From NCBI GenBank assembly GCA_963789865.1, contig CAWBMD010000005.1:15465-79464 (forward strand): DNA of 64,000 nt, in the 5' to 3' direction. Within the stretch, counting starts at the first letter, position 1, and the number at the start of each line of letters is the position of its first letter. The translations under genes and the position numbers were made by a program. This stretch comes from an uncultured Chloroflexia bacterium (GTDB lineage: Bacteria > Chloroflexota > Limnocylindria > Limnocylindrales > CSP1-4). The notes under the pieces are model-generated. The model had not been told where the DNA came from. It was given only the letters and a program-made list of their open reading frames with translations, and did not search any database. This document shows, one piece after another, positions 1,985 to 55,811 of this stretch.

Positions 1985-3826
1985 CTACGACCGGCTGATC
2001 TCGCGGACGTTGTCGAACAGCGTCAGGACGGCGAGACCGACGATCGCCGCGAAGACGATCGGCGTTGTGAACTCGTAGAACAGGATGAGCGCGCTCACCC
2101 CGGCAAGGACGAGCGTCGACCGCAGCAGCAGGACCGTCAGCCTGCGCCGGAAGGCCGACTCGAGCACCGCGTAGACCGCGATCGCGAGCAGGAGTGCCCC
2201 GTACCAGGGGACAGGCGTCAGCCATGGTACGGCCACGGTGGCGACCAGGAGCACGCTGATGCTGATGGCGGACCAGATCTCGATGAGCCGTCCGTAGCGG
2301 GTCATCTCTGGTGGGACAGGGTGATGATCATCGTGGAGGTGCGCGCGCGGGTCGCCGAAGTCGCCAGCGCGGAGTCGTTCCAGCTCGCGCCTGCTGGCCC
2401 GGATCGATTCGGACAGGACGCCTTCCTGCGTGCGGCCCTTGTTGACCTCTGACTCGCGCTTGGCCAGCTCGGCCGCCCGACCCGCGTGGATCGCGGCGAA
2501 GCTCTGGTCCTTGGACAGGGCCCGGACCTCCAGGTCCAGGCCGTCGAGGCTTGCCGCGTGGGCGTCGTTCTCGGCCCGCAGCGCCACCAGGGCGGCCTCC
2601 AGCTCCGCCAGGCGGGCCTCGAGCGCCGCTGGCATCCGGAACGGCGGCGCCGCCTTGGCCAGGCCGGCCCAGCCGATCGGGTCGTTCCACGACTGGCGGA
2701 TCGTGCCGGAGCGGGTGTACTTCGGCCCGGCCGGAGCCCTCTCACCGGCGAAGCGGTCGAACGTGTCGAGCCCCATGAGGCCCCGGTAGCCGTCGACCCA
2801 CGGGACCGAATCGTCGATCAGGACGGGCGTCCACAGCTCGCCGCCCTCGCCGCCCACCTGGAGGCCATCGCCTCGCGCGTAGTCGATGAACGGGATGCTC
2901 AGCGCGCGATCCAGCGAGGCCGCCAGGTCGCCCGGATCCGGTTGCCGCAGCGTGTCGCGCCAGAGCGATCGGAGCGCATCGAGGAACCCGTGGAGGCGGC
3001 GTGCGCCGGGGATTGGCGCCGCCGTCATGTACTCGCCGGCCTCGAAGTAGGCCGCGTGGGAGCCCGCCCCCGCGTGGATCACCGGGTGATCCCCCACCTT
3101 CACCAGGTACGGGTCGTCCCATCGTCGTCGCAGCTGATCGCCCGAGTAGTCGTGGGCCGCACAGGCGAACCAGACGGGCCTCGGCCCGTCCGGGGCATCC
3201 TCGAGGAAGACGTACGCCTGCTCCAGGTCCGACTCGTGGTCGTTCGCCCCCGAGAAGGTGGAACGCCAGTCGTTCATGAAGTAGAAGTACATGTAGTGGA
3301 GCACGATCCAGCCCTCGGACCGGAGGACGCGCCCGTGGTAGACGTACCGCGGGTCAACCTTGCGGACCGCCTCGTACTTCTGCGAGGCCGCTGCGGTCGT
3401 GCCGCCGGGGACGGTGCCCCGGAGCAGGAGCGACGCGGTGAAGCCGGTGTCCACGAGCCGGGCGAAGATGCCGACACGTGCGAGGCGGCTCGGGGCGTGG
3501 AACTCGGGACGCTCCGGGCGACGGTTCCAGCGCGCGAGATCGAGCCCGCCGAGCGGCTGCTGGCCCAGCCGCAGGGAGAGGGTCTCCCCGGGAGGAGCGA
3601 CGAACGAGACAAGGCGCTCCTCGGTCAGCTCGCCATAGGGCACGAGGAGTCGCCGGTCGCGCTCGGACCCCCCCACGAACAGGTCGCACTCGGGGATGTA
3701 CGAGGAGACCGCGGCCGGGAAGAAGAGCTCGCCCTGCGTGTAGCGGACCACCGGCTCATACGCCTGCAGGAGATCGAGATCGGAAGCACTCCCGATCCCG
3801 TCCCCTCGCCTCTCGCCGTCGATCAC
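1985..3826 (-). CDS. large hypothetical protein: N-terminal globular region, central coiled-coil, 2-3 C-terminal transmembrane helices
   Basis: 613-aa ORF with coherent composition. Coiled-coil segment ALEARLAELEAALVALRAENDAH…; C-terminal hydrophobic helices LIEIWSAISISVLLVATVAVPWL / YGALLLAIAVYAVL / LVLAGVSALILFYEFTTPIVFAAIVGLAVL. I recognise no family. Confidence 0.7.
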   Translation of the reverse strand: MIDGERRGDGIGSASDLDLLQAYEPVVRYTQGELFFPAAVSSYIPECDLFVGGSERDRRLLVPYGELTEERLVSFVAPPGETLSLRLGQQPLGGLDLARWNRRPERPEFHAPSRLARVGIFARLVDTGFTASLLLRGTVPGGTTAAASQKYEAVRKVDPRYVYHGRVLRSEGWIVLHYMYFYFMNDWRSTFSGANDHESDLEQAYVFLEDAPDGPRPVWFACAAHDYSGDQLRRRWDDPYLVKVGDHPVIHAGAGSHAAYFEAGEYMTAAPIPGARRLHGFLDALRSLWRDTLRQPDPGDLAASLDRALSIPFIDYARGDGLQVGGEGGELWTPVLIDDSVPWVDGYRGLMGLDTFDRFAGERAPAGPKYTRSGTIRQSWNDPIGWAGLAKAAPPFRMPAALEARLAELEAALVALRAENDAHAASLDGLDLEVRALSKDQSFAAIHAGRAAELAKRESEVNKGRTQEGVLSESIRASRRELERLRAGDFGDPRAHLHDDHHPVPPEMTRYGRLIEIWSAISISVLLVATVAVPWLTPVPWYGALLLAIAVYAVLESAFRRRLTVLLLRSTLVLAGVSALILFYEFTTPIVFAAIVGLAVLTLFDNVREISRS

Positions 3827-4296
3827 GGGCGGTCGTCCGCTTCCACCGCGAGGACAACCGGCTCAGGCTCGGCCGGTGGCACGAGGTAGATCTCCTTGAC
3901 CTCGCGCTGGTTGAGGTAGAAGGCCGACACGACGAAGATCGCCATGTTGACGAAGTTCGGGTCCGCCCAGATCCATAAGGCGATCTGCAGGAGCAGCCCG
4001 ACGCCGGTCAGCAGCATGATGGCGTACCAGCCGAATCGGTGGAACCGCCACAGAGCGACGGCTCCGGCGAGCGCCAGGAGCCCCAGGCCGACGAACAGGT
4101 CGTCGAGGAGGGGGGCCTTGTTCCCGAAGAGGGCCACGAGGCTTCCGCCCCGCGGGCCGAGGAACCCTCCCACGGCCGCCAGGTTGGCGCCAACGTTGGC
4201 CAGCTGGAACAGCACGAGGAGGACGACCCCGAAGGGCCTCGTCCGCCGGCCGACGATCGGTCCGGTCGGGCCTTCCGTCGTTGCGGCCTCGGTCAC
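3823..4296 (-). CDS. small integral membrane protein, 3-4 TM (DoxX-like?); start uncertain
   Basis: Its stop overlaps the start of the upstream gene at 3823-3826, suggesting translational coupling. Hydrophobic helices FGVVLLVLFQLANVGANLAAVGGFL, LFVGLGLLALAGAVALW, AIMLLTGVGLLLQIALWIW. GTG at 4296 taken as a provisional start. Confidence 0.5.
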   Translation of the reverse strand: MTEAATTEGPTGPIVGRRTRPFGVVLLVLFQLANVGANLAAVGGFLGPRGGSLVALFGNKAPLLDDLFVGLGLLALAGAVALWRFHRFGWYAIMLLTGVGLLLQIALWIWADPNFVNMAIFVVSAFYLNQREVKEIYLVPPAEPEPVVLAVEADDRP

Positions 4297-4438
4297 GGTA
4301 GTGCTCCTGCAACTCGACGAACGGAGTGTAGTCGCCGGACTGGCCTCGGTGCCTGACTGGCGCACGCACCGGTCCCTCGTGCCACTGGACGCGAGTTCGA
4401 GTTTGACGATCACGCCCGACCGACCTCATGCTTCACGC

Positions 4439-5329
4439 ATGCCCGGGCTCCACCCTCTCTCGATCCCCGCCCGACCCATGGTCGCCGACGGTGCCATGGG
4501 GACGGCCCTGTTCGCGGCGGGGATGCCCGCCGGGGCGGCGCCCGAGGCCTGGCTGCTGACCGTGGCCGGCGCCGCAGCCATCACGGAGGTGCACCGCGGT
4601 CATGTCCTGGCGGGTGCCCGCATCCTCCTGACCTCGACCTTCGGCGCCAATCCTTTTCGCCTGGCCGGATCCGTCCTTGAGGGGCGCAGCGGCGAGGTCT
4701 GCCGGGCGGCCGTGGCGGCTGCCCGTGCGGCCCGTGGCGCGGCGGCCGGGCCGGCGATGATCGTCGCCGGCAGCCTGGGGCCCACGGGCGGCCTGCTGGC
4801 ACCGTATGGCCCCCTGGACCCGGGTGCCGTCCGGGCGGCGTACGCAGAGGAGGCCGCGTCGCTCGTCGCGGCGGGCGTGGACGTGCTGTGGGTCGAGACG
4901 ATGATGGACCTGCGCGAGGCCGTCGCCGCCGTGGATGGTGCACGCGATGCGGCGCCCGAGGTCCCGGTGATCGCCACGCTGGTGTTCTCGCGGGGACGGA
5001 CGATGTTCGGCGACACGCCGGCCGATGCCGCGGCCACCCTCGCCGGGCACGGAGTCTCGGGCGTGGGTGCCAACTGCGGCGACGGGTTCGCCTCTGTGGA
5101 GGAGGTCATCCCGGCGCTGGCTGCGGCGGCGCCCGGTCTGCACGTGATCGCCAAGGCCAACGCCGGGGTCCCGATACGGCAATCGGACGGGCGGACCGTC
5201 TACCCGGGAACGGCCATCGAGGCGGGGGCGTACGCCCGACGGGTCGCCGACGCCGGCGCGACCATCGTCGGCGGCTGCTGCGGCACGACAGCGGACCACG
5301 TCGCGGCCATCGCGGCCGCACTCGCGTAG
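4439..5329 (+). CDS. homocysteine S-methyltransferase family protein (MmuM/BHMT-like)
   Basis: VADGAMGTALF…LLTSTFGANPF…GVDVLWVETMMDL…GVSGVGANCG…IVGGCCGTT: the Pfam S-methyl_trans signature, including the C-terminal GGCCGT zinc-binding motif. Confidence 0.85.
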   Translation: MPGLHPLSIPARPMVADGAMGTALFAAGMPAGAAPEAWLLTVAGAAAITEVHRGHVLAGARILLTSTFGANPFRLAGSVLEGRSGEVCRAAVAAARAARGAAAGPAMIVAGSLGPTGGLLAPYGPLDPGAVRAAYAEEAASLVAAGVDVLWVETMMDLREAVAAVDGARDAAPEVPVIATLVFSRGRTMFGDTPADAAATLAGHGVSGVGANCGDGFASVEEVIPALAAAAPGLHVIAKANAGVPIRQSDGRTVYPGTAIEAGAYARRVADAGATIVGGCCGTTADHVAAIAAALA

Positions 5330-5392
5330 TCTGGACAGCCGTCGCCGGTCTCCCCGGGCAGGACCACGCCCGCCCTGGCGCCCGGACCGTCG

Positions 5393-5662
5393 CTAGCCTC
5401 GCTTCCGCGGCTTCTCGCCGTCCTCCGTCGCCTGGGCCTCCTCCGCCCGGTGCGCGGCCAGATCCCGCTTCGCCTTGCGGTCGAAGAAGGGGATCACGAA
5501 CGGCATCATGCACAGGCCGGCGATGAACAATGGGATGAACAGCACGAGGACGCCGTTCGCCTGGTCGGGCAGCAGGGCCGTGACCAGTGTCACGCCCAGC
5601 CCATAGCCCAGCAACCCCACCGGCAGCGAGAGCGCGAACAGGATGTTGGGCAGATACCGCAT
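5393..5662 (-). CDS. small membrane protein (2 TM), hypothetical
   Basis: MRYLPNILFALSLPVGLLGYGLGVTLVTALL…VLVLFIPLFIAGLCMMPFVIPFF followed by a charged tail. Its start at 5662 sits 5 nt from the stop of the upstream gene, suggesting an operon. Confidence 0.55.
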   Translation of the reverse strand: MRYLPNILFALSLPVGLLGYGLGVTLVTALLPDQANGVLVLFIPLFIAGLCMMPFVIPFFDRKAKRDLAAHRAEEAQATEDGEKPRKRG

Positions 5663-5666
5663 GGGA

Positions 5667-6398
5667 TCAGGGCAGCTGGCCCGCAACCGGTGGTGCGGCC
5701 TCATACGTCTTCGGGATGGAGCCCGCGTAGTCCACGCCGCCCTCGACGAAGGTGATCTTCTGCATGTCGAGCCCCGTCACCTGGGGAAGGCGCGTCGCGA
5801 GGTACCCGTTGATGGCGTCCTCGGCCTTCGTCTGGAGGAAGCCCGGGACGCCGAAGGCACCGAACTTCAGCGAGTCGAAGTGGACGGTGGCCGCCTGCGG
5901 ACCGGTCACGTCGAGGTGCCACGTTGCGTCGACCGGTCCCGAGAACGGGTAGCCCCAGGGGGCGAAGTCGACCACCGCGCTCGTCTCGACGTAGCCATCG
6001 TGGAACCGGATGTGGACGTCGCTGATCCCGGGGGCAGGCTGGCTGACCTCCGGGAGCGCCATCACCGTGGCCTCGGAGACGGTCTGGTCGAGCGGCACCG
6101 ATCCCGAGAACGTGTGCTTCGACGCGAGGGTGTAGTTCTCCGGGGCCGAGGGAGTCTCGATCCCCAGCTGCTTCTTGAGGGCGGCGTACGAGGCGGCATC
6201 GGCTGGCTGGCCGCCCAGGTCCGCCGCCTTGTCCATCCCGAGGGCCGACGACAGGATCGGGACGTGGACGGCGCCCGTGCACGAGGCGACCAGGACACCC
6301 AGGACGATCAGGACCAGGATCGCGACAAGCAGCTTGCGCACGCGACGTTCCTCCACGCGATCCCGTTGTCCGCGGACCGCCGACGGGGACGCAGCCAT
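5667..6398 (-). CDS. hypothetical secreted lipoprotein
   Basis: N-terminal signal with lipobox (…LIVLGVLVASC). Mature region is T/S/P/G-rich with no recognised catalytic motif. Confidence 0.65.
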   Translation of the reverse strand: MAASPSAVRGQRDRVEERRVRKLLVAILVLIVLGVLVASCTGAVHVPILSSALGMDKAADLGGQPADAASYAALKKQLGIETPSAPENYTLASKHTFSGSVPLDQTVSEATVMALPEVSQPAPGISDVHIRFHDGYVETSAVVDFAPWGYPFSGPVDATWHLDVTGPQAATVHFDSLKFGAFGVPGFLQTKAEDAINGYLATRLPQVTGLDMQKITFVEGGVDYAGSIPKTYEAAPPVAGQLP

Positions 6399-40533: not shown

Positions 40534-41958
40534 TCAGGTGCGGTTGGTCTTGACCGGAGCGGCGGGCGGCGCGAACAGCCAGGTCTCGGGGTTGCTCTTC
40601 GCCGACATGCGGCCGAGGTCCGTGCCGTTCAGCGTGAAGTAGGTGGCGCTGGACTTGCCGGTGCGCACCTCGACGGTGTTCTTCGCCGTGAACGTCAGGA
40701 CCTTGCCCGGGCCGTAGACGGTGCCGGCCGTGCCGGTCTCGCTGGAGACGGTGCCGTCGACCCAGACCTTGAGCCATGCCCGGGACCCCTTGATCGTCAC
40801 GACCAGGTTGACGCCCCGGTACTGGATCGAGACGTTCCGGGTGAGCGAGACGGCCTTGCCATCCGCGGACGTGGCGGTGACCATGATCTGCCAGCTCCCG
40901 GCCGACAGGTCGAGGGGCGTGTCGAAGCTGCCGTCCGCCGCGACGTCGACCGTGACCGGCCCGACGGTCGGCGGCGCGGTTGGTGCCGGCGAGACGGCGG
41001 CGCCGGGCGCTGATGCGCTCGCCTTGGGCGTGGGCGTGGGCGGCGCAGGTGTCGGCACCGGCGCCCCGGCCGGCGCCACGAGGTTTGCCGACACGGCGAC
41101 GGTCTTCGCGTTCGTGGTGGTGCCCTTGACCGGGATGGCACCGTTCTCGAACTGGGATCCGTCCGCGGGCGAGGTGAGGTTGAGCGTCGGCGCCTCGATC
41201 ACGAGGAACGGCACCGTGATGAAGATCCGCGGCGTGCTCTCGGCAGTCTTGCCCGTGTCGGGATCCACCGCGGCGATGTCGAACTGGTTGCGGCCGCGCC
41301 GCAGGTCGACATCCTTGCTCCACTTGCCTGTCGCATCGGCCGACACCCGGTACGGCTCGTCCCGTCCGGCCGCCGTGATCGTGATCGTCGCCCCCGGGAT
41401 GGACGTGCCCTCCATCGTGTAGGTCGTCGTGTCCTCGGGCACGTCGATGACGAACTGGGACGGGTTCGTCACCGCGAGCGTCGGCGGCTTGGCGAACCGG
41501 ACCAGCTGGATCCCCATGTAGACGCCGAAGACCACGATCAGGACCGTGAGCAGGGCTGCCACGACCACGACGGGCGAGAACGTCATGCCCTGGCGTGGCG
41601 CCGCCAGGGGCTTTGGGACGGCCAGGACGGGCTCCGCGGGGATCGCCGCGTCACCGCGTTCGTTCTTCCATTGGCGCAGGACGTCGTCGGGGTCGAGGCC
41701 GAGGTAGAGCGCGTAGTTGCGCAGGAACCCCTTCGTGTAGACGGCTCCGGGGAGCTCCCGGTAGTCACCGTGCTCGAGTGCCTGCAGGTAGCGGGCGCGG
41801 ATCTTCGTGTCGCGTTCTGCCCGGGACAGGTCCACTCCCTTGCGCTCGCGCGCCGCCAGGAGCCGCTCGGGCAGGGACGGGCCCGCCTCGGTCGCGTATG
41901 CGCGATCGCCATCGCGCGCTTGCGCACGACTGCGCCGCGCGTCGTCTCGCGTGGTCAT
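40534..41958 (-). CDS. RodZ-like helix-turn-helix / DUF4115 membrane protein
   Basis: N-terminal XRE HTH (LPERLLAARERKGVDLSRAERDTKIRARYLQALEHGDY), one TM helix, Pro/Thr-rich linker, C-terminal beta domain. Confidence 0.8.
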   Translation of the reverse strand: MTTRDDARRSRAQARDGDRAYATEAGPSLPERLLAARERKGVDLSRAERDTKIRARYLQALEHGDYRELPGAVYTKGFLRNYALYLGLDPDDVLRQWKNERGDAAIPAEPVLAVPKPLAAPRQGMTFSPVVVVAALLTVLIVVFGVYMGIQLVRFAKPPTLAVTNPSQFVIDVPEDTTTYTMEGTSIPGATITITAAGRDEPYRVSADATGKWSKDVDLRRGRNQFDIAAVDPDTGKTAESTPRIFITVPFLVIEAPTLNLTSPADGSQFENGAIPVKGTTTNAKTVAVSANLVAPAGAPVPTPAPPTPTPKASASAPGAAVSPAPTAPPTVGPVTVDVAADGSFDTPLDLSAGSWQIMVTATSADGKAVSLTRNVSIQYRGVNLVVTIKGSRAWLKVWVDGTVSSETGTAGTVYGPGKVLTFTAKNTVEVRTGKSSATYFTLNGTDLGRMSAKSNPETWLFAPPAAPVKTNRT

Positions 41959-44402
41959 GCGTCGTCCTCGTCTTCCGCAGCAGCCGGACCGTCGTCACGA
42001 CGGAGGACCACCCTGGCGTTCGACCCGTCGAACGCCCCCACGTACCCGCGCGCCTCGAGCTGGTCGATGATCCGGGCGGCGCGCGCATAACCGATTCGCA
42101 GTCGCCGCTGGAGCAGCGATGCCGAAGCGCGATCGTACTCCCGGATGACCGAAACGGCATCCATCAAAAGCCGGTCCGCATCGTCGTCCGTGACGTCCTC
42201 GACGCTCCCGGTGGACTCCTCGTCGTTGTTGATGATCGAGAGGTCGTACCGCGGATCGTCGATCTGGTCGCGCCAGAACTGGGTCACGCGCCCGATCTCC
42301 GGGTCCGACACGAACACGCCCTGGAGGCGCATGGGCCGCGGCAGGTCGCTGGGCTGGTAGAGCATGTCGCCGCGGCCGATCAGGTCCTCGGCACCCGGCG
42401 AGTCGAGGATCGTCCGGCTGTCGATCTGGCTCGCCATCGCGAACGCGATGCGGCTCGGGAAGTTGGCCTTGATCAGCCCCGTGACCACGTTGACGGACGG
42501 CCGCTGCGTGGCGAGCACCATGTGGATGCCCGTGGCGCGGGCCTTCTGGGCGAGCCGGACGATCGGGTCCTCGATGTTCTTGCCCTCGCGCATCATCAGG
42601 TCCGCGAGCTCGTCGATGATGATCACGATGTACGGCAGCCGGTCCGCCGGGTCCACCCGGGTCTCGTTGTAGGCCTTGAGGTTGCGGGCGGTGGCGCCGG
42701 CGAACTGGCGGTACCGGTGCTCCATCTGGGCGACCGCCCACTTGAGGGCTGCCTTGGCACGCTCCGGCTCGGTGATGACCGGGACCAGCAGGTGCGGCAG
42801 GCCGTTGTACCCGGCGAGCTCCACGCGCTTGAGGTCCATCAGGATCATGCGCACGTCGTCCGGCGTCGCGTTGCACAGCAGGCTGGTGATGAGCGCGTTG
42901 ACCATCACGCTCTTGCCGGAGCCCGTGGCACCCGCGATCAGCAGGTGGGGCATCTTGGCGAGGTCCACGGCCTGGGCCCGGCCGGCGACGTCCCGACCCA
43001 GGGCAAAGGTCAGCCGCGTGCCGGACGCCGAGAAGTCCAGCTCCTCGAGGATCCGGCGCAACGCCACGACGTTGAACTCGGCGTTCGGGATCTCGATGCC
43101 GACCGCGCTCTTGCCCGGGATCGGCGCCTCGATCCGGATGCTCCGGGCCGCGAGCGCCATGGACAGGTCGTCCTGGAGCGCCTCGATCCGGCTGAGCTTG
43201 ATGTGCGGCGCGGGCTGGACCTCGTACTGGGTGACGACGGGGCCCGCGTTCCGGCCGATGATCCGCGCCTCGATGTCGAAGCTCGCGAGCTTCTTGACGA
43301 TGATCCCCTCGTTTCGCGCGTGGACGAGGTCCGCGTTCCCGGTGGCCGCCGGGGTGGGCACCTCGCCGGGGTCCAGGAGGTCGTGCGGCGGGAGGCGCCA
43401 TTCGATCGCCTCGCGGGTCGGCGGCGCGTCCGCGGCGCCTGTCCCGTCCTGCGCGTCGCGGGGGACGGCACCGACGGCTGCGGCGGCGAGCACGGGAGCC
43501 GCGACTCCATTGACCGCGACGCTGCCGTTCCGCTGGGGCGCGAAGGTCGCGGACGTCGGGGTCTGTGAGGGCACCGCGCCCGGGATGCCCGCGCCCGTCG
43601 CGTCCACACCCCAGACGCCCGTCTGTCCGGGTGCGTCCGCGCCCGAGATCTTGGGGGATCTGCCGCGCCGACCTGCTTCGGCGGAGCCCACTGCGGCCGC
43701 CGACCCCGCGGCCGCTCCGGCCGGACGACCGTCGGCGGTGCGCCCGGATGTCGCTCCAGCGGCCTCGGGTGCCTTCGAGGTGCGGTCCTGCAACGTGGAC
43801 CCGGCCGCGCGGGCCCCGGTGAGCAGCGGGGCGAGCAGGGCCCTGAGCGGCATGTCGAACGCGATCAGGATCCCCGTGATCATCAGTCCGACGAGGATGA
43901 TGAACGCGCCGGGCGTGGTCAGCAGGGGCGCCAGCAGGCTCTCGAGGGCACGCCCGATGCGACCACCGGTGAACTCGCCACGGAAGTTCACGACCTGGAT
44001 CACCCCCAGGAACGCGGCATAGGCGAGGGTGATCCCGAGCAGCGTCCTGCCCCACGGCGCGCCGGGCTCCCGGCCCGGTCCCCACTCCACGTACCACCCG
44101 GCGACCAGCAGGACCAGGGGGAACAGGACGCGCGCCGCCCCGAAGTAGGGCACGGTGAGGTTCCGCCACCAGTCGGTGAGCGACCCGCCGGGGAGCGCCA
44201 GCGCGATGAGCGACACCGCGCCCAGCATCAGCAGCACGATCCCGACGAGGGACCGCAGGACGGCCGGCGACAGCCCGAGCGACAGCCGCGGACGCGGCAG
44301 CCCGCCGCCCTGCCGGGACGCGGCCCTGGACGCGCGGCGCGAGCCCGCCGGTGTCCGGTTGGCCGGGGAGGAGCGCGGCGCGGAACGTCGCCGAGGAGCC
44401 AT
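41955..44402 (-). CDS. ftsK: DNA translocase FtsK/SpoIIIE
   Basis: N-terminal TM region. Motor HLLIAGATGSGKSVMVNALITSLL (Walker A), …ILMDLKRVEL…, C-terminal gamma wHTH …LLMDAVSVIREYDRASASLLQRRLRIGYARAARIIDQLEARG. Confidence 0.9.
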   Translation of the reverse strand: MAPRRRSAPRSSPANRTPAGSRRASRAASRQGGGLPRPRLSLGLSPAVLRSLVGIVLLMLGAVSLIALALPGGSLTDWWRNLTVPYFGAARVLFPLVLLVAGWYVEWGPGREPGAPWGRTLLGITLAYAAFLGVIQVVNFRGEFTGGRIGRALESLLAPLLTTPGAFIILVGLMITGILIAFDMPLRALLAPLLTGARAAGSTLQDRTSKAPEAAGATSGRTADGRPAGAAAGSAAAVGSAEAGRRGRSPKISGADAPGQTGVWGVDATGAGIPGAVPSQTPTSATFAPQRNGSVAVNGVAAPVLAAAAVGAVPRDAQDGTGAADAPPTREAIEWRLPPHDLLDPGEVPTPAATGNADLVHARNEGIIVKKLASFDIEARIIGRNAGPVVTQYEVQPAPHIKLSRIEALQDDLSMALAARSIRIEAPIPGKSAVGIEIPNAEFNVVALRRILEELDFSASGTRLTFALGRDVAGRAQAVDLAKMPHLLIAGATGSGKSVMVNALITSLLCNATPDDVRMILMDLKRVELAGYNGLPHLLVPVITEPERAKAALKWAVAQMEHRYRQFAGATARNLKAYNETRVDPADRLPYIVIIIDELADLMMREGKNIEDPIVRLAQKARATGIHMVLATQRPSVNVVTGLIKANFPSRIAFAMASQIDSRTILDSPGAEDLIGRGDMLYQPSDLPRPMRLQGVFVSDPEIGRVTQFWRDQIDDPRYDLSIINNDEESTGSVEDVTDDDADRLLMDAVSVIREYDRASASLLQRRLRIGYARAARIIDQLEARGYVGAFDGSNARVVLRRDDGPAAAEDEDDA

Positions 44403-44405
44403 CCG

Positions 44406-46073
44406 CTAGACCTCGACCACGACCGGAAACACCATCGGACGGCGCTTGGTCTGCTCGTACAGGAAGCGGGAAAGGCTGTCCTTGATCTGGGACTTGAGGA
44501 GCGCAACCTCCGAGATCCGGTCCCCGGGAGCATCGACGGCGTCGCGGATCCGGCGGATGGCCTCCTCGATGATCGGGTCCTCCTCGTTCCCGTGGACGAA
44601 GCCACGGGTGATGATCTCCGGTCGGCCCACGACGCGCCCGGTCTGCTTGTCCACCTGGACGACGATCATGAACATGCCGTCGTTCGCCAGCGCGCGACGG
44701 TCACGCAGTACCACGTCCCCCACCTCGCCGACGGACAGGCCGTCCACGTAGACATAGCCCGCGGCGACGGGCTGGCCTCGACGGGCGCTGCCGTCCGCGA
44801 AGATCTCGATCGGCGTGCCGTTCTCGATGATGAACACGTTCTCGGGCAGGACGCCGGTCTCGATCGCGAGGCGCCCGTGCTGGACCAGCATCCGGAACTC
44901 GCCGTGCATCGGGATGAAGTGCGTCGGCTTGGTGAGCCCCAGCATCAGCTTGAGCTCCTCCTGGCTCGCGTGGCCGGAGACGTGGGCCCGCTTGATCGCG
45001 TGGTAGTAGACGTTCGCGCCGGCCTTGAACAGGTTGTCGATCGTGCGCGCGACGTACTCCTCGTTGCCCGGGATCGGGCTGGCGGACACGATGACCGTAT
45101 CGCCGGGCTGGATCTCCACGAAACGGTGGTCGCGGTTGGCCATGCGCGCGAGGCCTGCCATCGGCTCGCCCTGGGCACCGGTCGTGGCGATGACGAGCTT
45201 GCCCGGGGGAATGTCCTTGATCTTGTCCTTCGCGACGATCATCGACGGCTCGTACCTGAGATAGCCGAGGTCCGTGGCGATCCGGAAGTTCTGCTCCATG
45301 GAGCGCCCGATGACGGTCACCTTGCGGCCGAGGTCGGCGGCCGCATCCAGGACCTGCTGGACCCGCGCGATGTTGCTGGCGAAGGTGGCGATGATCACGC
45401 GGCCGTCGAGCGGCTCCATGATCTCTCGGAAGGCCTCGCCGACGATCCGCTCGGACGGCGTGTAGCCCGGGTTCTCCGCCCGCGTCGAGTCCGACAGGAG
45501 GCAGATGACACCCTCCTCGCCCAGGCGGGCAAGGATGTGGAAGTCGGACAGCTTGCCGTCGACCGGCGTGTGGTCGAACTTGAAGTCGCCGGTGTGGACC
45601 ACGGTCCCGACCGGGGTGCGCAGGGCGATACCCATCGCGTCCGGGATCGAGTGGCCGATCCGGAACGGGATCGCCGTGAACGGGCCAATCTCCAGCTCGT
45701 CGCCGGGCTCGAGCGCGAGCAGCGGGTTGTTGTGGAGCTTGTGCTCCTTGATCTTGTTGCCCAGGAGGCCGCGAGCGAGCGTGCTCGCATACACGGGGAC
45801 GCCCGGGAACTCCGGCAGGACGTACGGCAGGCCGCCGACGTGGTCCTCGTGGGCGTGGGTGATGAGGAACGCGCGGACCTTGGAGCGGTTCTCCTTCAGG
45901 TACGTGACGTCGGGCACGACGAGGTCGATGCCGAACATCTCCTCGTCGGGGAACATGAGCCCGCAGTCGATGACGACGATGTCGTCTCCGTACTCGAACA
46001 CGTACATGTTCTTGCCGATCTCCCCCACCCCGCCGAGCGGGATGATGCGGAGGGGCGTGTTGGGGTCTGCCAT
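44406..46073 (-). CDS. rnj: ribonuclease J
   Basis: …LITHAHEDHVGGLPYVL (metallo-beta-lactamase HxHxDH), beta-CASP and C-terminal domain, 555 aa. Confidence 0.9.
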   Translation of the reverse strand: MADPNTPLRIIPLGGVGEIGKNMYVFEYGDDIVVIDCGLMFPDEEMFGIDLVVPDVTYLKENRSKVRAFLITHAHEDHVGGLPYVLPEFPGVPVYASTLARGLLGNKIKEHKLHNNPLLALEPGDELEIGPFTAIPFRIGHSIPDAMGIALRTPVGTVVHTGDFKFDHTPVDGKLSDFHILARLGEEGVICLLSDSTRAENPGYTPSERIVGEAFREIMEPLDGRVIIATFASNIARVQQVLDAAADLGRKVTVIGRSMEQNFRIATDLGYLRYEPSMIVAKDKIKDIPPGKLVIATTGAQGEPMAGLARMANRDHRFVEIQPGDTVIVSASPIPGNEEYVARTIDNLFKAGANVYYHAIKRAHVSGHASQEELKLMLGLTKPTHFIPMHGEFRMLVQHGRLAIETGVLPENVFIIENGTPIEIFADGSARRGQPVAAGYVYVDGLSVGEVGDVVLRDRRALANDGMFMIVVQVDKQTGRVVGRPEIITRGFVHGNEEDPIIEEAIRRIRDAVDAPGDRISEVALLKSQIKDSLSRFLYEQTKRRPMVFPVVVEV

Positions 46074-46097
46074 GGCTGTCTCGATCGTGCTTGGGTT

Positions 46098-48605: not shown

Positions 48606-48750
48606 GGCCTGATGGTACGCGGCAGAACACAGGGGAAACCCTGCGGAGCGGACGTTCACGGGCCTATGATCTGGACAACCCGACCACCGCACTGGTGGCG
48701 CGTGCTCGTCCCGGACCGCGTCGATGTGACCGCATAGCACCGGAGGCACC

Positions 48751-49470
48751 GTGGAAGCCACCCGCAAGGCACCCTACTCCGTCTACAACGACGGCACGGG
48801 GCCGTACGCCATGTTCACCTGCGAGTCGTGCGGTCGCGACTACCGCGCGCAGCCGGTCCTCGTGGAGGAGGTCAAGGAGACCGTCGCCAAGTCCGCCTTT
48901 GGCGGGCTGCTTCGCAACATCCCGATCGTCGGCAACTCCGCCGCCAACCAGGTCGACAACGACCGCTATCGGAACACGCTGACCAACGACGAGCTCGAGA
49001 AGGCCTGGGCCGAGGTGAAGGTCAACTTCGCCGAGTGCCAGTCCTGCCGCCGGGTCGTGTGCATCCCCGACTTCGACATGGCCTCGGGCTTCTGCAAGGA
49101 GGACTCGCCGCGCAGCGAGGAGCTCCAGGCCCGGGATGCGCAGCAGGCCGGCGCGGCCGCCGCGAGCTTCTTCGGTGGCATCGCGAACGCGTTCGGGATC
49201 CCCGACGCGATGAAGGCCGCGGCCGCCCAGCAATCCGCTGGGGTCGCGCCCGGTGCGGCGCCGGCAGCAGCGCCCGGTGCAGCGGCAGCGCCCGGTACCG
49301 CGCAGGCCGCAGCGTGCGCCTCCTGCGGGGGGACGCTGGCGCCGGGAGCGAAGTTCTGCGCCAACTGCGGAACGCCCGTGCCCAGCAAGGCCTTCTGCAC
49401 CGGCTGCGGCAAGGAGCTCGCGCCGGGCGCGAAGTTCTGCGCCAACTGCGGCCAGCCTGCGGGCGGATGA
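48751..49470 (+). CDS. zinc-ribbon domain protein (multiple CxxC pairs, Ala/Pro-rich linker)
   Basis: FTCESCGRDY…CQSCRRVVC…, then (A/P)-rich repeat …AAPGAAPAAAPGAAAAPGTAQAAA…, then CASCGGTLAPGAKFCANCGTPVP…CTGCGKELAPGAKFCANCGQP (double zinc ribbon). Confidence 0.7.
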   Translation: MEATRKAPYSVYNDGTGPYAMFTCESCGRDYRAQPVLVEEVKETVAKSAFGGLLRNIPIVGNSAANQVDNDRYRNTLTNDELEKAWAEVKVNFAECQSCRRVVCIPDFDMASGFCKEDSPRSEELQARDAQQAGAAAASFFGGIANAFGIPDAMKAAAAQQSAGVAPGAAPAAAPGAAAAPGTAQAAACASCGGTLAPGAKFCANCGTPVPSKAFCTGCGKELAPGAKFCANCGQPAGG

Positions 49471-49596
49471 CCTCGCCCGCGGGGCAACTGCTGCGGGACG
49501 CCTGAATCGGAAGCGCCCCCGGGGCCGAAGGCCCCGGGGGCGCTGTTCGTTCGGTGCCAAGGTCACCGCGGCGACTGCCCGGTTCGAGCGCGCGAC

Positions 49597-52184
49597 CTAC
49601 TTGGCCAGGTGCCGCTGCATCGCCGCCTTGCGGGACAGGTTGACGCGGCCCTGGCGGTCGATCTCGGTGACCACCACCATGACCTCGTCGCCAACGGACA
49701 CGACATCCTCGACGGACGGCACGTGGTAGTCGGCGAGCTCGCCGATCCGGATGAGCCCCTCCTTGCCCGGGCAGGATCTCGACGAAGCAGCCGAACGTCA
49801 TCAGCCGGGTGACCTTGCCCAGGTACAGGGCGCCGATCTCGACCTCGCGGGTGAGGCTCTCGATCCAGTTGATCGCCTTGCGCGAGTTCTCGCCCGAGAC
49901 AGCCGCGATCTCCACGGTGCCGTCGTCCTCGACGTTGATCTCGGTGCCGGTCTCCTCCTGGATCTTGCGGATCATCGATCCGCCCTTGCCGATGATCTCG
50001 CGGATCTTCTCCGGGTTGATCTTGATCGTGATGATCCGCGGAGCGAACTCGGACATCTCCTCGCGCGCCGACGGCAGCACCGAGGTCATCTTGTCGAGGA
50101 TGAACAGGCGGGCGGCGAGCGCCTGCTTGAGGCCCTCGCGGATGACCCGCTCGTCGATGCCCTTGACCTTGATGTCCATCTGGAGGGCGGTGATGCCCTC
50201 CGTGGTGCCCGTCACCTTGAAGTCCATGTCGCCGATCGAGTCCTCCTTGCCGAGGATGTCGGTCAGGACCACGAAGTTGCCCGTGTCGCCATCGATGCAC
50301 GAGGCCCATCGCCGCGCCGGCCACCGGTGCCTTGATCGGCACGCCGGCGTCCATCAGCGCGAGCGTCGAGCCGCACGTCGAGGCCATCGACGTCGAGCCG
50401 TTGCCGGCCACGACCTCGGACACGAGGCGGATGACGTACGGGAACTCCTCCTGCGTCGGGAGCACCGGCAGGAGCGCCCGGGCGGCGAGGTTGCCGTGCC
50501 CGATGTCGCGGCGGGACGGCCCGCGCATCGGCTTGTTCTCGCCGGTGCTGTAGGGCGGGAAGTTGTAGTGGTGGAGGTACCGCTTGGAGAGCTCCGGGCT
50601 GATCGTGTCGATCCGCTGGACGTCAGAGGACGGCCCAAGGGTGGCGACGGTCAGGGCCTGGGTCTGGCCGCGGGTGAACAGGCCGGAGCCGTGCGCACGC
50701 GGCAGGAGGCCGACCTCGACCGAGATCGGGCGGATCTCGTCGGTGGCGCGGCCGTCCATGCGGATGCCCTCGCGCAGGACGAGCTCCCGGACGGCCTTCT
50801 TCTGGACCAGTCCGAACAGGCTCTTGCTCAGGCGCGCGTTGCGACGGGCCGCCTCGAGGAGCCTGGCCGACTCGTCCTTGTCGGTGCGCGTCGCGCGGAC
50901 GGCCGTGGTGATGCCGTCCCTCAGGGTCTCGATCCGGCCGGGCAGGTCGTTGCCGAACCAGATCAGCAGGTTCGCAGTGGCCTCGGCGTCCGGCAGCGCC
51001 CGGTGGTTCTCGGTGAGCTCGACGCCGAAGAAGTTGGCCAACGTCCCGAGCTTGTAGTTCTCGAGATCCGGGTAGCCCTCGCGGGCGATGACGAGCGTAT
51101 CCAGGTACGTGCCCTGCGCGACGCGGGTGCCGTCGCCGAGGGCCTCCTCGATGAACGCGATGTCGAAGCCGACGGAATGGCCGACGAACGGCGCGTCGCC
51201 GACGAACTCCAGCACCTTGCGCGCGGCCTCGGCCGGGCTCGGGGCGCCCTTGACGTCCTTGTCGGTGATGCCGTGCATCTGGTTGCCGACGATCGGACGA
51301 CCGGGGTTCACGAGCGTGGACCACGTGTCGGTGACCTTGCCGCCCTTGACGCGGACCGCCGCGACCTCGACCAGGTCGGCCATCTTCGGGTCCGTGCCGG
51401 TCGTCTCGACGTCCACGACGACGAACTCGCCGCCCGCCTTCGCCAGGTCCGCGAACTTGAGGACGGAGTCGGTGAGCGGCTCGAGGTACGGGATGAGCTT
51501 GGGCTTGCCGACGAGCTCCCGCAGCTTGTCCTGCAGCTCGACGAGCGGCAGCAGCGACCGCTGGGCGAACAGGATCGCCTCGGCCATCACGTCCTCGGGC
51601 AGGATCTTGACCCCCGCCTCGACCATCATGATGGCGTCACGGGTGCCGGAGACGACGAGGTCCAGGTCGGATCCCGCGAGCTCGGTGTAGGTCGGGTTGA
51701 GGACGAACTCCCCGTCGATCCGGCCGACACGCACTGCGCCCACTGGACCCTGGAACGGGATCTCGCTGATGGTCAGCGCGGCGGACGCCGCGATGGTGCC
51801 GAGGACGTCCGGGTCGTTCTCCTGGTCGGTCGAGAGGACCGTGATCACGAGCTGGACGTCGTCCTTGTAGCCCTCGGGGAACAGCGGGCGGATCGGGCGG
51901 TCCGTCAGGCGCGCCGCGAGGGTCGCGGCCTCCGACATCCGGCCTTCGCGCTTGATGAAGCCGCCGGGGATCTTGCCGGCCGCGTACATCCGCTCCTCGA
52001 ATTCGACGGTGAGCGGGAAGAAGTCGAGCCCGGGCCGCGGCAGGCTGCGGTTGGCCGTCCCGAGGACGAGGGTGTCGCCGTAGCGCAGGGTGACGGCGCC
52101 ACCCGCAAGGCCGGCCAGCTTGCCGGTCTCGAGCGTGAGGGTTCGACCGCCGAACTCGATCTCGAGCGTGGTGGGTGTGGGCAC
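49597..52184 (-). CDS. pnp: polyribonucleotide nucleotidyltransferase (PNPase) with an inserted DEDDh 3'-5' exonuclease domain. Two apparent frameshifts (~50275, ~49765).
   Basis: RNase PH-1 (…[22 protein letters not shown]…), then DnaQ-like insert aa ~253-425 ([10 protein letters not shown]…[10 protein letters not shown]…[13 protein letters not shown]), RNase PH-2 (…[14 protein letters not shown]…[10 protein letters not shown]…), and KH/S1 (…[25 protein letters not shown]…GRVNLSRK) in shifted frames. Stop at 49597. Confidence 0.85.
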
Positions 52185-52700: not shown

Positions 52701-54089
52701 TCAGGCCATCGTCATCGCCCGATCCGGCCGGAGGAGATACGGCGGCAGGTAGGCCGGGAGGTTCGAGAACGGCATCACATCCGGGTGGAGCCGGATCCCG
52801 AGCGCGTCCGCCATGAAGCTGCGGCGTGCCTCGATCCGCCGCCAGGCCTCCGGGTACGCGGCCGCGAACGCCTCGCGGAGGGACGCGTCCGCCAGTGCGA
52901 CCCCATCCTCGATGTTGGTCGTGAACCAGGGCGAGCCCGTCGCCGGGATGATGTCCACCTGGAGGGCCATCCCGGACCGAATCACGGTCCGGGACCCGCG
53001 GAAGATCGGCGAGCCCACCCACTCGTCGAGGTGGATCTGGTGACCCGGGTTGAGGAAGATCCCGTAGAACGGGTCGCCGAGGTGGCGATCGATGATCGCG
53101 GCCAGGGCCCCGCCGGTCTGTCCCACGTGGAGCGCCTCGTACCACTCTGCGACGGCGCCGAAGTACGGCCCGACCAGGCGGTCGACGTAGTCCCTGATCC
53201 CGTCCGCCAGCTGGTCCGGTCCCTCGACGACGAACCCGGCCCGGCACGTCAGCGCGCCCCAGATCCCAAAGGCGACGGTGAACGGGTCCCCACGCTCGAT
53301 CGGGCGCTCCGCGGGACTCAGGAGCCCGGCGGACGCGCGGGGTCCGGCGGTGAGCATGAGGTGGCATGACAGGGGCGTCCCGTCCCAGCCCAGGAGGCGG
53401 ACCGCCGCGTCCTCGCGCAGCCCCGGCCGCAGGCCGAGGAGCAGGTTCCGGATCCCGTCGGAGGTCCGGCACGACGCGTGCTCCAGGACCGCAAGCTGGT
53501 CCACGTCGTTGATCACCCGCAGGCCGTCCGCGGCGTCGATCAGGAGCCCGTTGGCGTTGTGCACGACCCCGCCCGAACCGACCAGCCGTCGCAGCTCGTC
53601 CGCCAGGAAGGACGGGACCTCGAGCATCCCGGGGTCAGCGTACGACTTCCAGCCGAGCACGCCGACCCGCACGCCCGGTCCGATCCCCTCGCCGCCCAGG
53701 ATCTCCGCCAGCGGTCGTGAGCGGTCGCGCGGCTGCGCCGGCAGGCTCAGGTCCTGGAACAGGTGCCGGCGCATCCGCAGCGGCGCCGCCCCCGCCACCC
53801 CGAAGCACTCGTTGCCCACCAGGATCGCGGGTTCGGCAGGCTGGTCGTGCACGTCCAGCACGAGGACCGCCTCCTCGAACCGCGGGTCGAACCCGGTCAG
53901 GAACGCGAGGTTCGCGCTGTGCTCGCGGTCGGCATACACCACCAGGCGGTCGTAGCCGTGCTCCGCGGCGCGCTCCCGGAGCCGTTCGACACGGGCGGCA
54001 TACGCTTCCGCCGGGATCGACGGCCTGGGGCCGTGCGGGCCGAAGTCCGGCATGCCGACCTCGGCCACCCTCGCCCTCGCCATGCTCAT
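52701..54089 (-). CDS. M24-family (creatinase/prolidase fold) peptidase-like protein
   Basis: N-terminal creatinase-like domain (…[24 protein letters not shown]…) and C-terminal pita-bread region (…[19 protein letters not shown]…GMALQVD…). The metal-ligand set is not clearly canonical. Confidence 0.6.
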
Positions 54090-54105
54090 GCCTCCCGTCG
54101 GGCGC

Positions 54106-55775
54106 TCACGGGTTCGCCGCCTGGAACGGCCGCACGCTCGCCGCTCCCCGCTCGACCACGATCACCTGGTCGGCCGTCGCCGGCAGCCATGGCCCCGTCT
54201 CGCCATCGGGCCAGTGGACCCGGACGTCGACCTGTGTCGCCGGGCCGAGCCCGACGTGCAGCGGAACGAGAGCGCCGCCGATGTGTCCCCCGCCAACCGT
54301 GATCTCGCGCTGCACGACGGTGTCCCCGATGCGGACGTCGACCCACGACCCGATCGCGTCCCTGTTGCCACCCGGCTGCTGGAGCCCGATGCCGAGCCAG
54401 TGGCCCATCGCCACCGGAGCGGTCGCCGTCCCGGCCCCGACATTGCGCCACACCCGAACAGGCGCGCCGAGATTGACCTCCACGAGGTCCGGGAGGCCGT
54501 CCGCGTTCAGGTCGGTCACGACGGCACCGCGCCCGCGGTCGAAGGTGACGATCCCGGCGTCGCCCGCGCCCTCGACGAACGTCCCGTCCGGCTGGCCGAG
54601 GAACAGGTTGCTCGGATCCTGCGCGGCGTAGTCCGGCATGGCGTTGACGTTCCCCTTGGACACGAACAGGTCGATGAAGCCGTCGTTGTTCACGTCCTGG
54701 AACTCCGGGTGCCAGGCCGTCGAGGGCAGTGCTTCGCCGCCGGCGAACGGCTCGGGCCGCCGTCACCCCGCGCTTGAGCGCGATGTCGCGGTAGCTCGGC
54801 TGTGCGGGGCCGGTCGCCAGGGTCTGGAGCTTGTTGTCGCCCTGGCTCGTCAGGTACACGTCCGGATAGCCGTCGCCCGTGACGTCATAGCTGGCGATGC
54901 CCATCCCCCAGATCTGCATGCTCACCCACCCCTCGTCTGCCGTGTAGAGACGCGGCGCCTCACCGGGCTGGATACGCCACAGCTGGTCCTCGCCGTCGGT
55001 GTAGTACTGGCGGTCGTTGGTCACCCGCAGGTCCCGGCGTCCCGACCTGTCCCAGTCGCTGAACAGCATCGACAGCGTGCAGTACCCGGGGGCAAGTGGC
55101 ACCGCTGGGGCGTACCGAGCTTCCGCCGGCCGTGGGCCTCAGCAGGAGGCTGGCAGCACAGTCGGAGGTCAGCTTGCCCGACGAGTCGAGCTGGAGGTAG
55201 TTGCCGACCGCGAGCGTCGGGAGCGCCGCGGCGCCCTCCCAGGTCGCGCTGAAGGCCGTCGCGAAGCCGCCGCCGCCATCGAAGCCCCACGACGCGTCCG
55301 CCTGCTCGAACCGGCAGTCGCCGAGCCCGCGCAACAGGTGGGCGCCGCCGACCTGGAGGATCGCGAGGTCCACCTTCCCGTCACCGTCGACGTCGAGCGG
55401 ATAGGCTCCGTTGACGCCCACGACGTCTGTCACGGGGTCGGCGACGCGCGCAAATGCGAGGGCGCCGCCCGGGGCGCTCTCGTTGCGATACAGCGCGGCC
55501 GGGTTGCCACCGCCGGCGAAGTACAGGTCCGGCCGGCCGTCGTTGTCACAGTCGAACGCCGCCACGCCGCCGCCCGTCGCGAACGTCGCATCGCCGTCGT
55601 ACGCGTGGCCGATGCCCGCCGTCGCCGTCTCGTCCACGAAGCGCGGCGCCACGGCGGCGACGGTCGGCGTGACCCGGCCCCCGCGCAGGATGCCCGGTCC
55701 CACCAGAATCACCGCCCCGGCGGCCGCCACGACGATGACGAGGCCGCCGAGGACCGCGACGCGCCGGCGGGTCAC
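54106..55775 (-). CDS. CRTAC1-family protein (FG-GAP/VCBS repeats + ASPIC/UnbV domain). At least two apparent frameshifts (~55100, ~54750).
   Basis: Signal/TM N-terminus. Repeated …DCDNDGRPDLYF…, …DVDGDGKVDL…, …DVTGDGYPDVYL…, …MNNDGFIDLFV…, …DLNADGLPDLV… and a C-terminal UnbV-like …VDVRVHWPDGE… Pieces lie in three frames. Confidence 0.75.
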
Positions 55776-55811
55776 GAGCCACCCCGGGGGATCACGAGCC
55801 GTGCCGACCGG

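Follow-up and report, generated by a model that had tools for sequence, protein, structure and literature searches.

The rpsO-pnp locus and its corrected product

The window analysed here, a stretch of 64,000 nucleotides from an uncultured Chloroflexota bacterium (contig CAWBMD010000005.1), carries on its minus strand a pnp gene whose product, polynucleotide phosphorylase (PNPase), has two RNase PH domains with a complete DEDDh (DnaQ-like) 3'-5' exonuclease domain set between them. PNPase ranks with the most conserved and most intensively studied enzymes of RNA decay, and its domain order, PH-alpha-PH-KH-S1, is regarded as universal from bacteria to human mitochondria; RNA-decay specialists would find such a fusion surprising. 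The gene starts with a GTG codon at 52184, ends with a stop codon at 49597-49599 and is laid out as follows, where counts out of 39 refer to the window protein together with 38 full-length orthologues.

49597..52184, minus strand: pnp, encoding PNPase with the nested exonuclease (TIGR03591 match; orthologues intact)
51510..52184, minus strand: first RNase PH-like domain (PH1 and RNase_PH_C), residues 1-225 (Pfam; alignment of solved PNPases to ~225)
51429..51509, minus strand: linker and first all-alpha helix, residues 226-252 (helix 239-249 in the AlphaFold2 model; G226 and K229 invariant)
50955..51428, minus strand: DEDDh (DnaQ-like) 3'-5' exonuclease domain, residues 253-410
51396..51416, minus strand: Exo I motif VDVETTG (D258 and E260, both invariant in 39/39)
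51162..51179, minus strand: Exo II motif HSVGFD (H336 and D341, both invariant in 39/39)
50988..51005, minus strand: Exo III motif HRALPD (H394-x4-D399, the 'h' signature of DEDDh; both invariant in 39/39)
50769..50954, minus strand: retained C-terminal all-alpha part, residues 411-472 (AlphaFold2; Pfam PNPase; alignment of 8zaw from 417)
50298..50768, minus strand: second, catalytic RNase PH domain (PH2), first part, residues 473-629, with the phosphate-binding motifs RRDIGHG and NGSTSMAS
50297..50297, minus strand: extra base 1 (+1 insertion, GTG-C-ATC on the coding strand), frame lost after residue 629; present in 0/7 orthologues
49766..50296, minus strand: rest of PH2 (GDMDFK metal-site motif), KH domain (49859-50032) and start of S1, residues 630-806
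49765..49765, minus strand: extra base 2 (+1 insertion in a CCCGGG run), frame lost after residue 806; present in 0/7 orthologues
49597..49764, minus strand: end of S1, residues 807-861, and stop codon
52307..52603, minus strand: rpsO, ribosomal protein S15 (Pfam Ribosomal_S15, E = 4.7e-35), directly upstream of pnp

The pnp open reading frame (ORF) had been taken, from the sequence alone, to encode ~870 amino acids (aa), a length that results from read-through after a frameshift; the corrected protein has 861 aa, and its C-terminus (...QRHLAK) reaches 49600. The listed 873-aa ORF (49563..52184) follows the true frame for residues 1-629 only and is out of frame after ...AGAAMGLV, because two single extra bases, at 50297 and 49765, split the gene over three reading frames, the second of 177 aa (IDGDTGNF...FVEILPG) and the third of 55 aa (KEGLIRIG...QRHLAK). 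These two insertions, whose positions were mapped after a frame check of the alignment, are the sole length differences between the window gene and seven orthologous genes of 88-92% nucleotide identity.

Two +1 insertions that break the frame could mean that pnp is a pseudogene in this genome, with both frameshifts real. Against this stand the three segments themselves, which contain no stop codons, abut exactly and are 95-98% identical in protein sequence to an intact orthologue (L001; tblastn), as well as the location of the second extra base within a CCCGGG run and the adjacency of pnp to rpsO, which marks it as a housekeeping gene. Moreover, the neighbouring FG-GAP/ASPIC (UnbV) gene (54109-55811, minus strand) also lies in three frames relative to its intact 579-aa orthologue in L001 (tblastn), with switches near 55118 and 54760, which, together with those in pnp, makes four frameshifts in ~6 kb. 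The window thus appears to carry frequent one-nucleotide indels and, since the adjacent gene is affected in the same way, the pnp frameshifts are probably errors of the assembly consensus rather than biology; we consider a pseudogene quite improbable.

The corrected protein is a genuine PNPase. Across its whole length it matches the NCBIfam model TIGR03591 with 930 bits (cut-off 525), in two stretches split by the insert, and Pfam assigns two RNase_PH and two RNase_PH_C domains, RNase_T at residues 255-407, KH_1 at 718-775 and S1 at 781-852. The phosphate- and metal-site motifs of PH2 (RR-x-IGHG, GS(S/T)SMAS and GDMDFK) are all present and align with those of solved PNPases; the functions of Ser, His and Arg in the phosphate site are assigned after PMC12685370. 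The gene rpsO lies directly upstream of pnp, in the classical rpsO-pnp arrangement, both in the window and in 57 of 61 insert-bearing loci, and it does so in the orthologous genomes wherever their contigs include the DNA before pnp, so this is a housekeeping pnp locus and not a paralogue. In its host, a bacterium of Candidatus Limnocylindrales (Chloroflexota), the window gene encodes the single housekeeping PNPase.

A DEDDh exonuclease inside the all-alpha domain

The sequence-only reading had placed a complete DEDDh domain between the RNase PH domains, and our family searches bear this out. In the region that it had singled out for a domain search (residues ~253-425), RNase_T (PF00929), aligned over its full profile (positions 1-164 of 164), matches residues 255-407 at 92.4 bits (E = 5.8e-26; cut-off 24 bits), far above what chance would yield. 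All three quoted Exo motifs were likewise found on the minus strand where it had located them. Its span of 50910-51433 contains the domain (50955-51428), although it also takes in the start of the following helix. At the NCBIfam level, the insert matched models of a DEDD exonuclease (PRK07883), PolC and the DinG exonuclease with 120-150 bits (E = 1e-35 to 1e-43). The closest solved chains by sequence were PolC exonucleases (9qpc, E = 4e-24; 2p1j, E = 4e-22), followed by Staphylococcus aureus DinG (E = 2e-16), Cas2-DEDDh and DnaQ, and then by epsilon and ExoX. The insert scored far under every cut-off of the PolC, DinG and dnaQ equivalog models of NCBIfam, and the domain-level model TIGR00573 gave a borderline result (cut-off 71.5), with 72.4 for the insert alone and 68.8 for the whole protein. 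Tested by sequence, the insert did not group with the Orn family. On these family matches, the insert belongs to the DnaQ/PolC/DinG branch as a textbook case of a DEDDh domain.

Canonical PNPases align to the window protein up to residue ~225 and resume at 417 (8zaw) or at 449-456 (most others), which amounts to a net insertion of ~160 residues. Where this insertion sits relative to the all-alpha domain was examined in an AlphaFold2 monomer model of the corrected protein, built on a 71-sequence alignment (predicted local distance difference test [pLDDT] 92.1, predicted template-modelling score [pTM] 0.85). In this model, a helix at 239-249 precedes an RNase H-like alpha/beta fold of the DEDDh family that begins with a strand at residue 253; a helix at 396-431 then runs unbroken from the Exo III motif into the alpha domain and is followed by helices 436-450 and 454-472 and the second PH domain. 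A further model, restricted to residues 226-472, gave the same picture (pLDDT 91). Since one helix (239-249) stands before the insert and three (the tail of 396-431, 436-450 and 454-472) stand behind it, the exonuclease is, in the predicted structure, nested in the all-alpha domain between its first and second helices and does not replace it. The all-alpha domain is split, with a reduced N-terminal part. The Pfam model for it (PF03726) matches residues 444-479 with profile positions 45-80 of 81, at 20.5 bits and therefore under the cut-off of 24.6. The earlier suggestion that the exonuclease occupies the place of the alpha-helical linker is thus right as to its location between the PH domains; the model puts it after the first helix of an alpha domain that is kept. 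Because the last exonuclease helix extends uninterrupted into the alpha domain, the C-terminal junction looks rigid in the model, implying a rigid mount.

Other unusual PNPases were encountered during the searches. In one (P0189), the alpha domain is split at the same profile position (~45/46) by an insert without a family match, and in another (P0179), ~150 residues without a family match precede the alpha domain. A third, of 914 aa (P0266), holds a GNAT acetyltransferase domain at aa 526-660, between the RNase_PH core of PH2 and KH. From such sequences, the alpha domain of PNPase looks like an insertion hot spot, and the enzyme described here would show that this domain can act as a platform for new catalytic modules.

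Distribution and conservation across Limnocylindria

At E <= 1e-5, a junction-spanning protein query (residues 190-520) matched 2256 proteins in the database. The best 120 of these all carried PF00929, in most cases alongside RNase PH domains, and, where the source was named, came mostly from Candidatus Limnocylindrales, Limnocylindria or Chloroflexota. All of these best 120 matches were fragments, of 577 aa or less in this first protein search, and they proved to be contig-end partials or frameshifted ENA gene calls, so that a biological split of the gene was rejected. ENA-derived calls of the same gene are also frameshifted in other assemblies (P0003, P0023, P0048 and P0064), and many other database copies end at contig ends near residue 540-558, despite intact genes in the genome collection.

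A scan of that collection, with one genome per GTDB species, identified the insert in 61 of the best 80 loci. The same architecture, as one intact ORF of 860-915 aa, occurs in Candidatus Limnocylindria, a class of Chloroflexota (NCBI taxonomy), in at least 38 genomes at the species level, and the next-best loci, from Ktedonobacteria, Dehalococcoidia and Veillonellaceae, are without the insert. The insertion is hence shared by orthologues in related genomes, as the sequence-only reading had proposed to check, yet its assignment of host and orthologues to Actinomycetota does not hold: the lineage is Limnocylindria, and the actinobacterial GPSI/PNPase model TIGR02696 reaches 655.7 bits on the window protein, below its cut-off of 1106.75. 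Longer tblastn spans (4001-6310) had hinted at an extra insert of 140 aa in some loci; the corresponding ORFs are equally 860 aa, and the hint was dismissed as an alignment artefact.

These data also bear on whether the insert could be a chimeric mis-assembly of pnp with a separate exonuclease gene, for which nothing speaks beyond the unusual architecture itself. The 38 intact ORFs derive from independent metagenome-assembled genomes (MAGs), obtained from soil and lake samples by SPAdes- or megahit-style short-read assembly and by assemblies of the MFD project, and the same junctions recur across these independent studies and assemblers, as does the insert across the 61 loci. Furthermore, GC content is uniform over the junctions (0.68-0.70), synonymous divergence (dS) is uniform along the gene, and the predicted helix is continuous over the C-terminal junction. 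We therefore rejected a chimera, which these observations render exceedingly improbable.

In a library of 1.84 billion cluster representatives searched with HMMER, a single full-length representative showed the architecture (P0121, 864 aa, 942 bits). It stands for a 50%-identity cluster, the sole full-length one with the fusion, and the remaining matches were either fragments of the fusion or canonical PNPases. Among 19 other unusually long PNPase representatives, none contained RNase_T (0/19); they had additional S1 or KH domains, tails or inserts of other kinds instead, and independent fusions in other lineages are thus unsupported. The fusion gene does occur on short contigs in MAGs labelled as other lineages (L027, L050, L057, L061, P0010, P0014, P0019, P0060 and P0066), the labels being Patescibacteria, Verrucomicrobiia, Polarisedimenticolia, Binatia, Saccharimonadia, Acidoferrum and Deferrimicrobiaceae. 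These genes are 60-76% identical to those of Limnocylindria, and their labels likely reflect mis-binning or contamination.

Within the 39-sequence set, which spans two deep clades, all five metal-binding and general-base residues of the exonuclease (D258, E260, D341, H394 and D399) are invariant in every sequence, as are T261, T262, H336 and F340. Among eight close orthologues, the ratio of nonsynonymous to synonymous divergence (dN/dS) was the same for the insert as for PH1 (0.21 each) and lower for PH2 (0.12). Both catalytic centres appear intact and under purifying selection, given the invariant exonuclease residues, the low dN/dS values and the PNPase site motifs, which align as in solved enzymes. 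This conservation pattern also speaks to the idea that the exonuclease domain serves as a structural, 3'-end-binding or regulatory module, for instance as a gate for phosphate or nucleoside diphosphates (NDPs), without significant catalysis. Such a role would suit its host, as the alpha domain is thought to control the access of phosphate and NDPs to the PNPase active sites (PMC6181284), and the same point of the alpha domain takes non-nuclease inserts in other PNPases, such as P0189. However, the catalytic residues, together with the ETT and H-x-x-x-F-D patterns, are invariant over both clades, even though inserts of the deep clade are only ~47% identical to that of the window, and this is the pattern of an active enzyme rather than of a scaffold. 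We accordingly regard a purely non-catalytic role as improbable.

The surroundings of the gene are those of an ordinary chromosome. The neighbouring features are:

48730-49467, plus strand: small zinc-ribbon protein (double motifs, Ala/Gly/Pro-rich linker), convergent with pnp
44409-46097, minus strand: RNase J, 3.5 kb downstream of pnp, past asd and a GNAT gene
41958-44405, minus strand: FtsK, beside RNase J

The 3' end of the zinc-ribbon gene lies ~130 nucleotides (nt) from the pnp stop codon. Besides the GNAT acetyltransferase gene and asd in the neighbourhood of pnp, other parts of the window encode transporters, a histidine kinase and functions of sugar metabolism. Around rpsO-pnp, neither an Rfam family nor a promoter-like or terminator-like site was found. 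Two further ORFs on the minus strand have a strong coding signal, with a GC content at third codon positions (GC3) of 0.89-0.93, and gave no Pfam match at E <= 1e-4 and 1e-5. One (52704-54161, 486 aa stop-to-stop) adjoins rpsO upstream and has ~61% identity to its counterpart in L009; the other lies at 1988-3862 (625 aa stop-to-stop).

Proposed function and relation to known systems

The phosphorolytic sites of PNPase lie inside the channel of its ring, and in human PNPase the alpha domain touches RNA, which is able to enter from the bottom (PMC12685370). Processive exoribonucleases leave products of 2-5 nt that nanoRNases remove (PMC10570053, PMC9779919), and the DEDDh enzyme REXO2 clears short RNAs from the mitochondrial PNPase-SUV3 degradosome (PMC7261184). 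We propose that the ancestor of the class Limnocylindria gained a PolC/DinG-type DEDDh domain, which lies after the first helix and before the second in an alpha domain that would flank the phosphorolytic site as well as the ring's 'bottom' opening. Since the DEDDh domain appears rigidly mounted on the alpha domain, we infer that every phosphorolytic site would be accompanied by a hydrolytic 3'-5' site that does not depend on phosphate, so that each trimer would hold three metal-dependent hydrolytic sites adjoining three phosphorolytic ones. The domain would provide a second, phosphate-independent removal of 3' nucleotides from the nucleic acids handled by PNPase, and its favoured task may be the clearing of RNA that PNPase is unable to finish or to attack, such as short oligoribonucleotides or 3' stubs left by phosphorolysis, or RNA decay at low phosphate. 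One polypeptide would then hold labour that is elsewhere divided between PNPase and Orn or REXO2. Among the scanned ORFs of the window, no Orn- or Nrn-type gene was seen, RNase J being the sole other ribonuclease there.

We put the probability of a primarily RNA-directed role at roughly 0.45. An RNA substrate for the insert, and with it the two-mechanism RNA-degrading machine of the sequence-only reading, is plausible, but putative, since its closest relatives are exonucleases of the DNA type (PolC, DinG, epsilon and ExoX), and it weighs against our proposal that Bacillus subtilis DinG, a characterised relative, prefers single-stranded DNA over single-stranded RNA (PMC12525004). As the main alternative, the nested exonuclease might act chiefly on DNA or RNA:DNA hybrids and serve a secondary role of PNPase at 3' DNA ends or R-loops in repair and replication stress, instead of bulk RNA turnover. 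The best-scoring models (PRK07883, PolC and DinG) and the best solved relatives, the PolC and DinG exonucleases, would fit such a role, and B. subtilis DinG breaks down the RNA strand in hybrids in addition to single-stranded DNA (PMC12525004). PNPase itself degrades single-stranded DNA and takes part in double-strand-break repair (PMC2709576, PMC3241651, PMC5379764), and according to a preprint it also degrades the RNA of R-loops (PMC13251995). On the other hand, the host protein keeps all its RNA-handling features (the KH and S1 domains, the rpsO-pnp operon and an FFRR-type loop), the locus, with asd, RNase J and FtsK as its neighbours, shows no linkage to repair genes, and DEDDh enzymes often take both sugars, so that likeness to DNA exonucleases leaves RNA open as a substrate. 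In our judgement, a mainly DNA-directed role is rather unlikely. For this branch of the DEDDh family, it is quite possible that the 3' ends of RNA and DNA alike are attacked. Were the insert to act on DNA or R-loops, it would represent the first hard-wired link of PNPase to its debated role in genome maintenance.

Returning to the RNA-directed role, a more specific and tentative version of it is a dual-chemistry machine, in which the DEDDh sites by the exit or bottom opening take the substrates or end-products of the ring. If true, such an enzyme could finish RNA to mononucleotides, or work when phosphate is scarce, without a nanoRNase or an enzyme of the RNase II/R type, and it would be a bacterial single-polypeptide counterpart of the exosome-plus-hydrolase design. 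More broadly, a whole bacterial class that is abundant in soils and lakes has harboured a second, apparently active nuclease in its PNPase since the class diverged. This constitutes a natural experiment on the coupling of phosphorolytic and hydrolytic 3'-5' decay, on the limits of PNPase at short substrates or low phosphate, and on the origin of arrangements that join an exosome-type ring to a hydrolase.

The absence of a described PNPase with this architecture, as the sequence-only reading had supposed, agrees with the searched full-text literature and with the solved structures. A PNPase with a DEDD or DnaQ-like domain, or a PNPase of Limnocylindria, was not found in that literature, which included a paper on Limnocylindria genomics. 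Database entries bear automatic labels ('exonuclease domain-containing protein, partial' or 'polyribonucleotide nucleotidyltransferase'); the proteins are known as sequences and not as a described enzyme, and what they represent is a class-wide nested fusion of two well-known families.

With canonical bacterial PNPases (TIGR03591; Escherichia coli 3GCM/7OGK, Caulobacter crescentus 4AIM and Streptomyces antibioticus 1E3P), the Limnocylindria enzyme has in common both PH domains as well as KH and S1, the motifs that bind phosphate and metal, and the rpsO-pnp operon. Solved PNPases are 35-41% identical to the window protein, with Foldseek target-normalised template-modelling scores (TM-scores) of up to 0.94. 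Searched as a whole model against the PDB, the window protein retrieved ordinary PNPases only, with query-normalised TM-scores of <=0.67 and none with an extra domain. It differs from all of these by the ~160 extra residues that form a complete second nuclease domain within the all-alpha domain. The DEDDh domains of the PolC, DinG and epsilon types (PF00929; 9QPC, 2P1J, 8ZEF/9II8 and 1J53) are hosted by a DNA polymerase or helicase, whereas here the host is an RNA phosphorylase; unlike these relatives, the Limnocylindria protein has no polymerase, helicase or GIY-YIG partner domain.

The pairing of a phosphorolytic ring with a DEDDh hydrolase on 3' ends is the same as that of E. coli PNPase with Orn and of human PNPase-SUV3 with REXO2 (PMC7261184, PMC9779919). 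Conceptually, the eukaryotic RNA exosome follows the same design, a ring of PH domains joined to a hydrolytic 3'-5' exonuclease (Rrp6 or Rrp44), and Rrp6, like the insert, belongs to the DEDD superfamily; this is an analogy only, as the arrangement is not homologous. Rrp6 is a DEDDy (RNase D-type) enzyme that forms a subunit of its own, and the ring of the eukaryotic exosome is catalytically dead. The Limnocylindria protein, tested for this arrangement of a separate DEDDy subunit on an inactive PH ring, did not show it: its Exo III motif has His rather than Tyr, its nuclease is fused in cis, and its PH2 motifs are intact.

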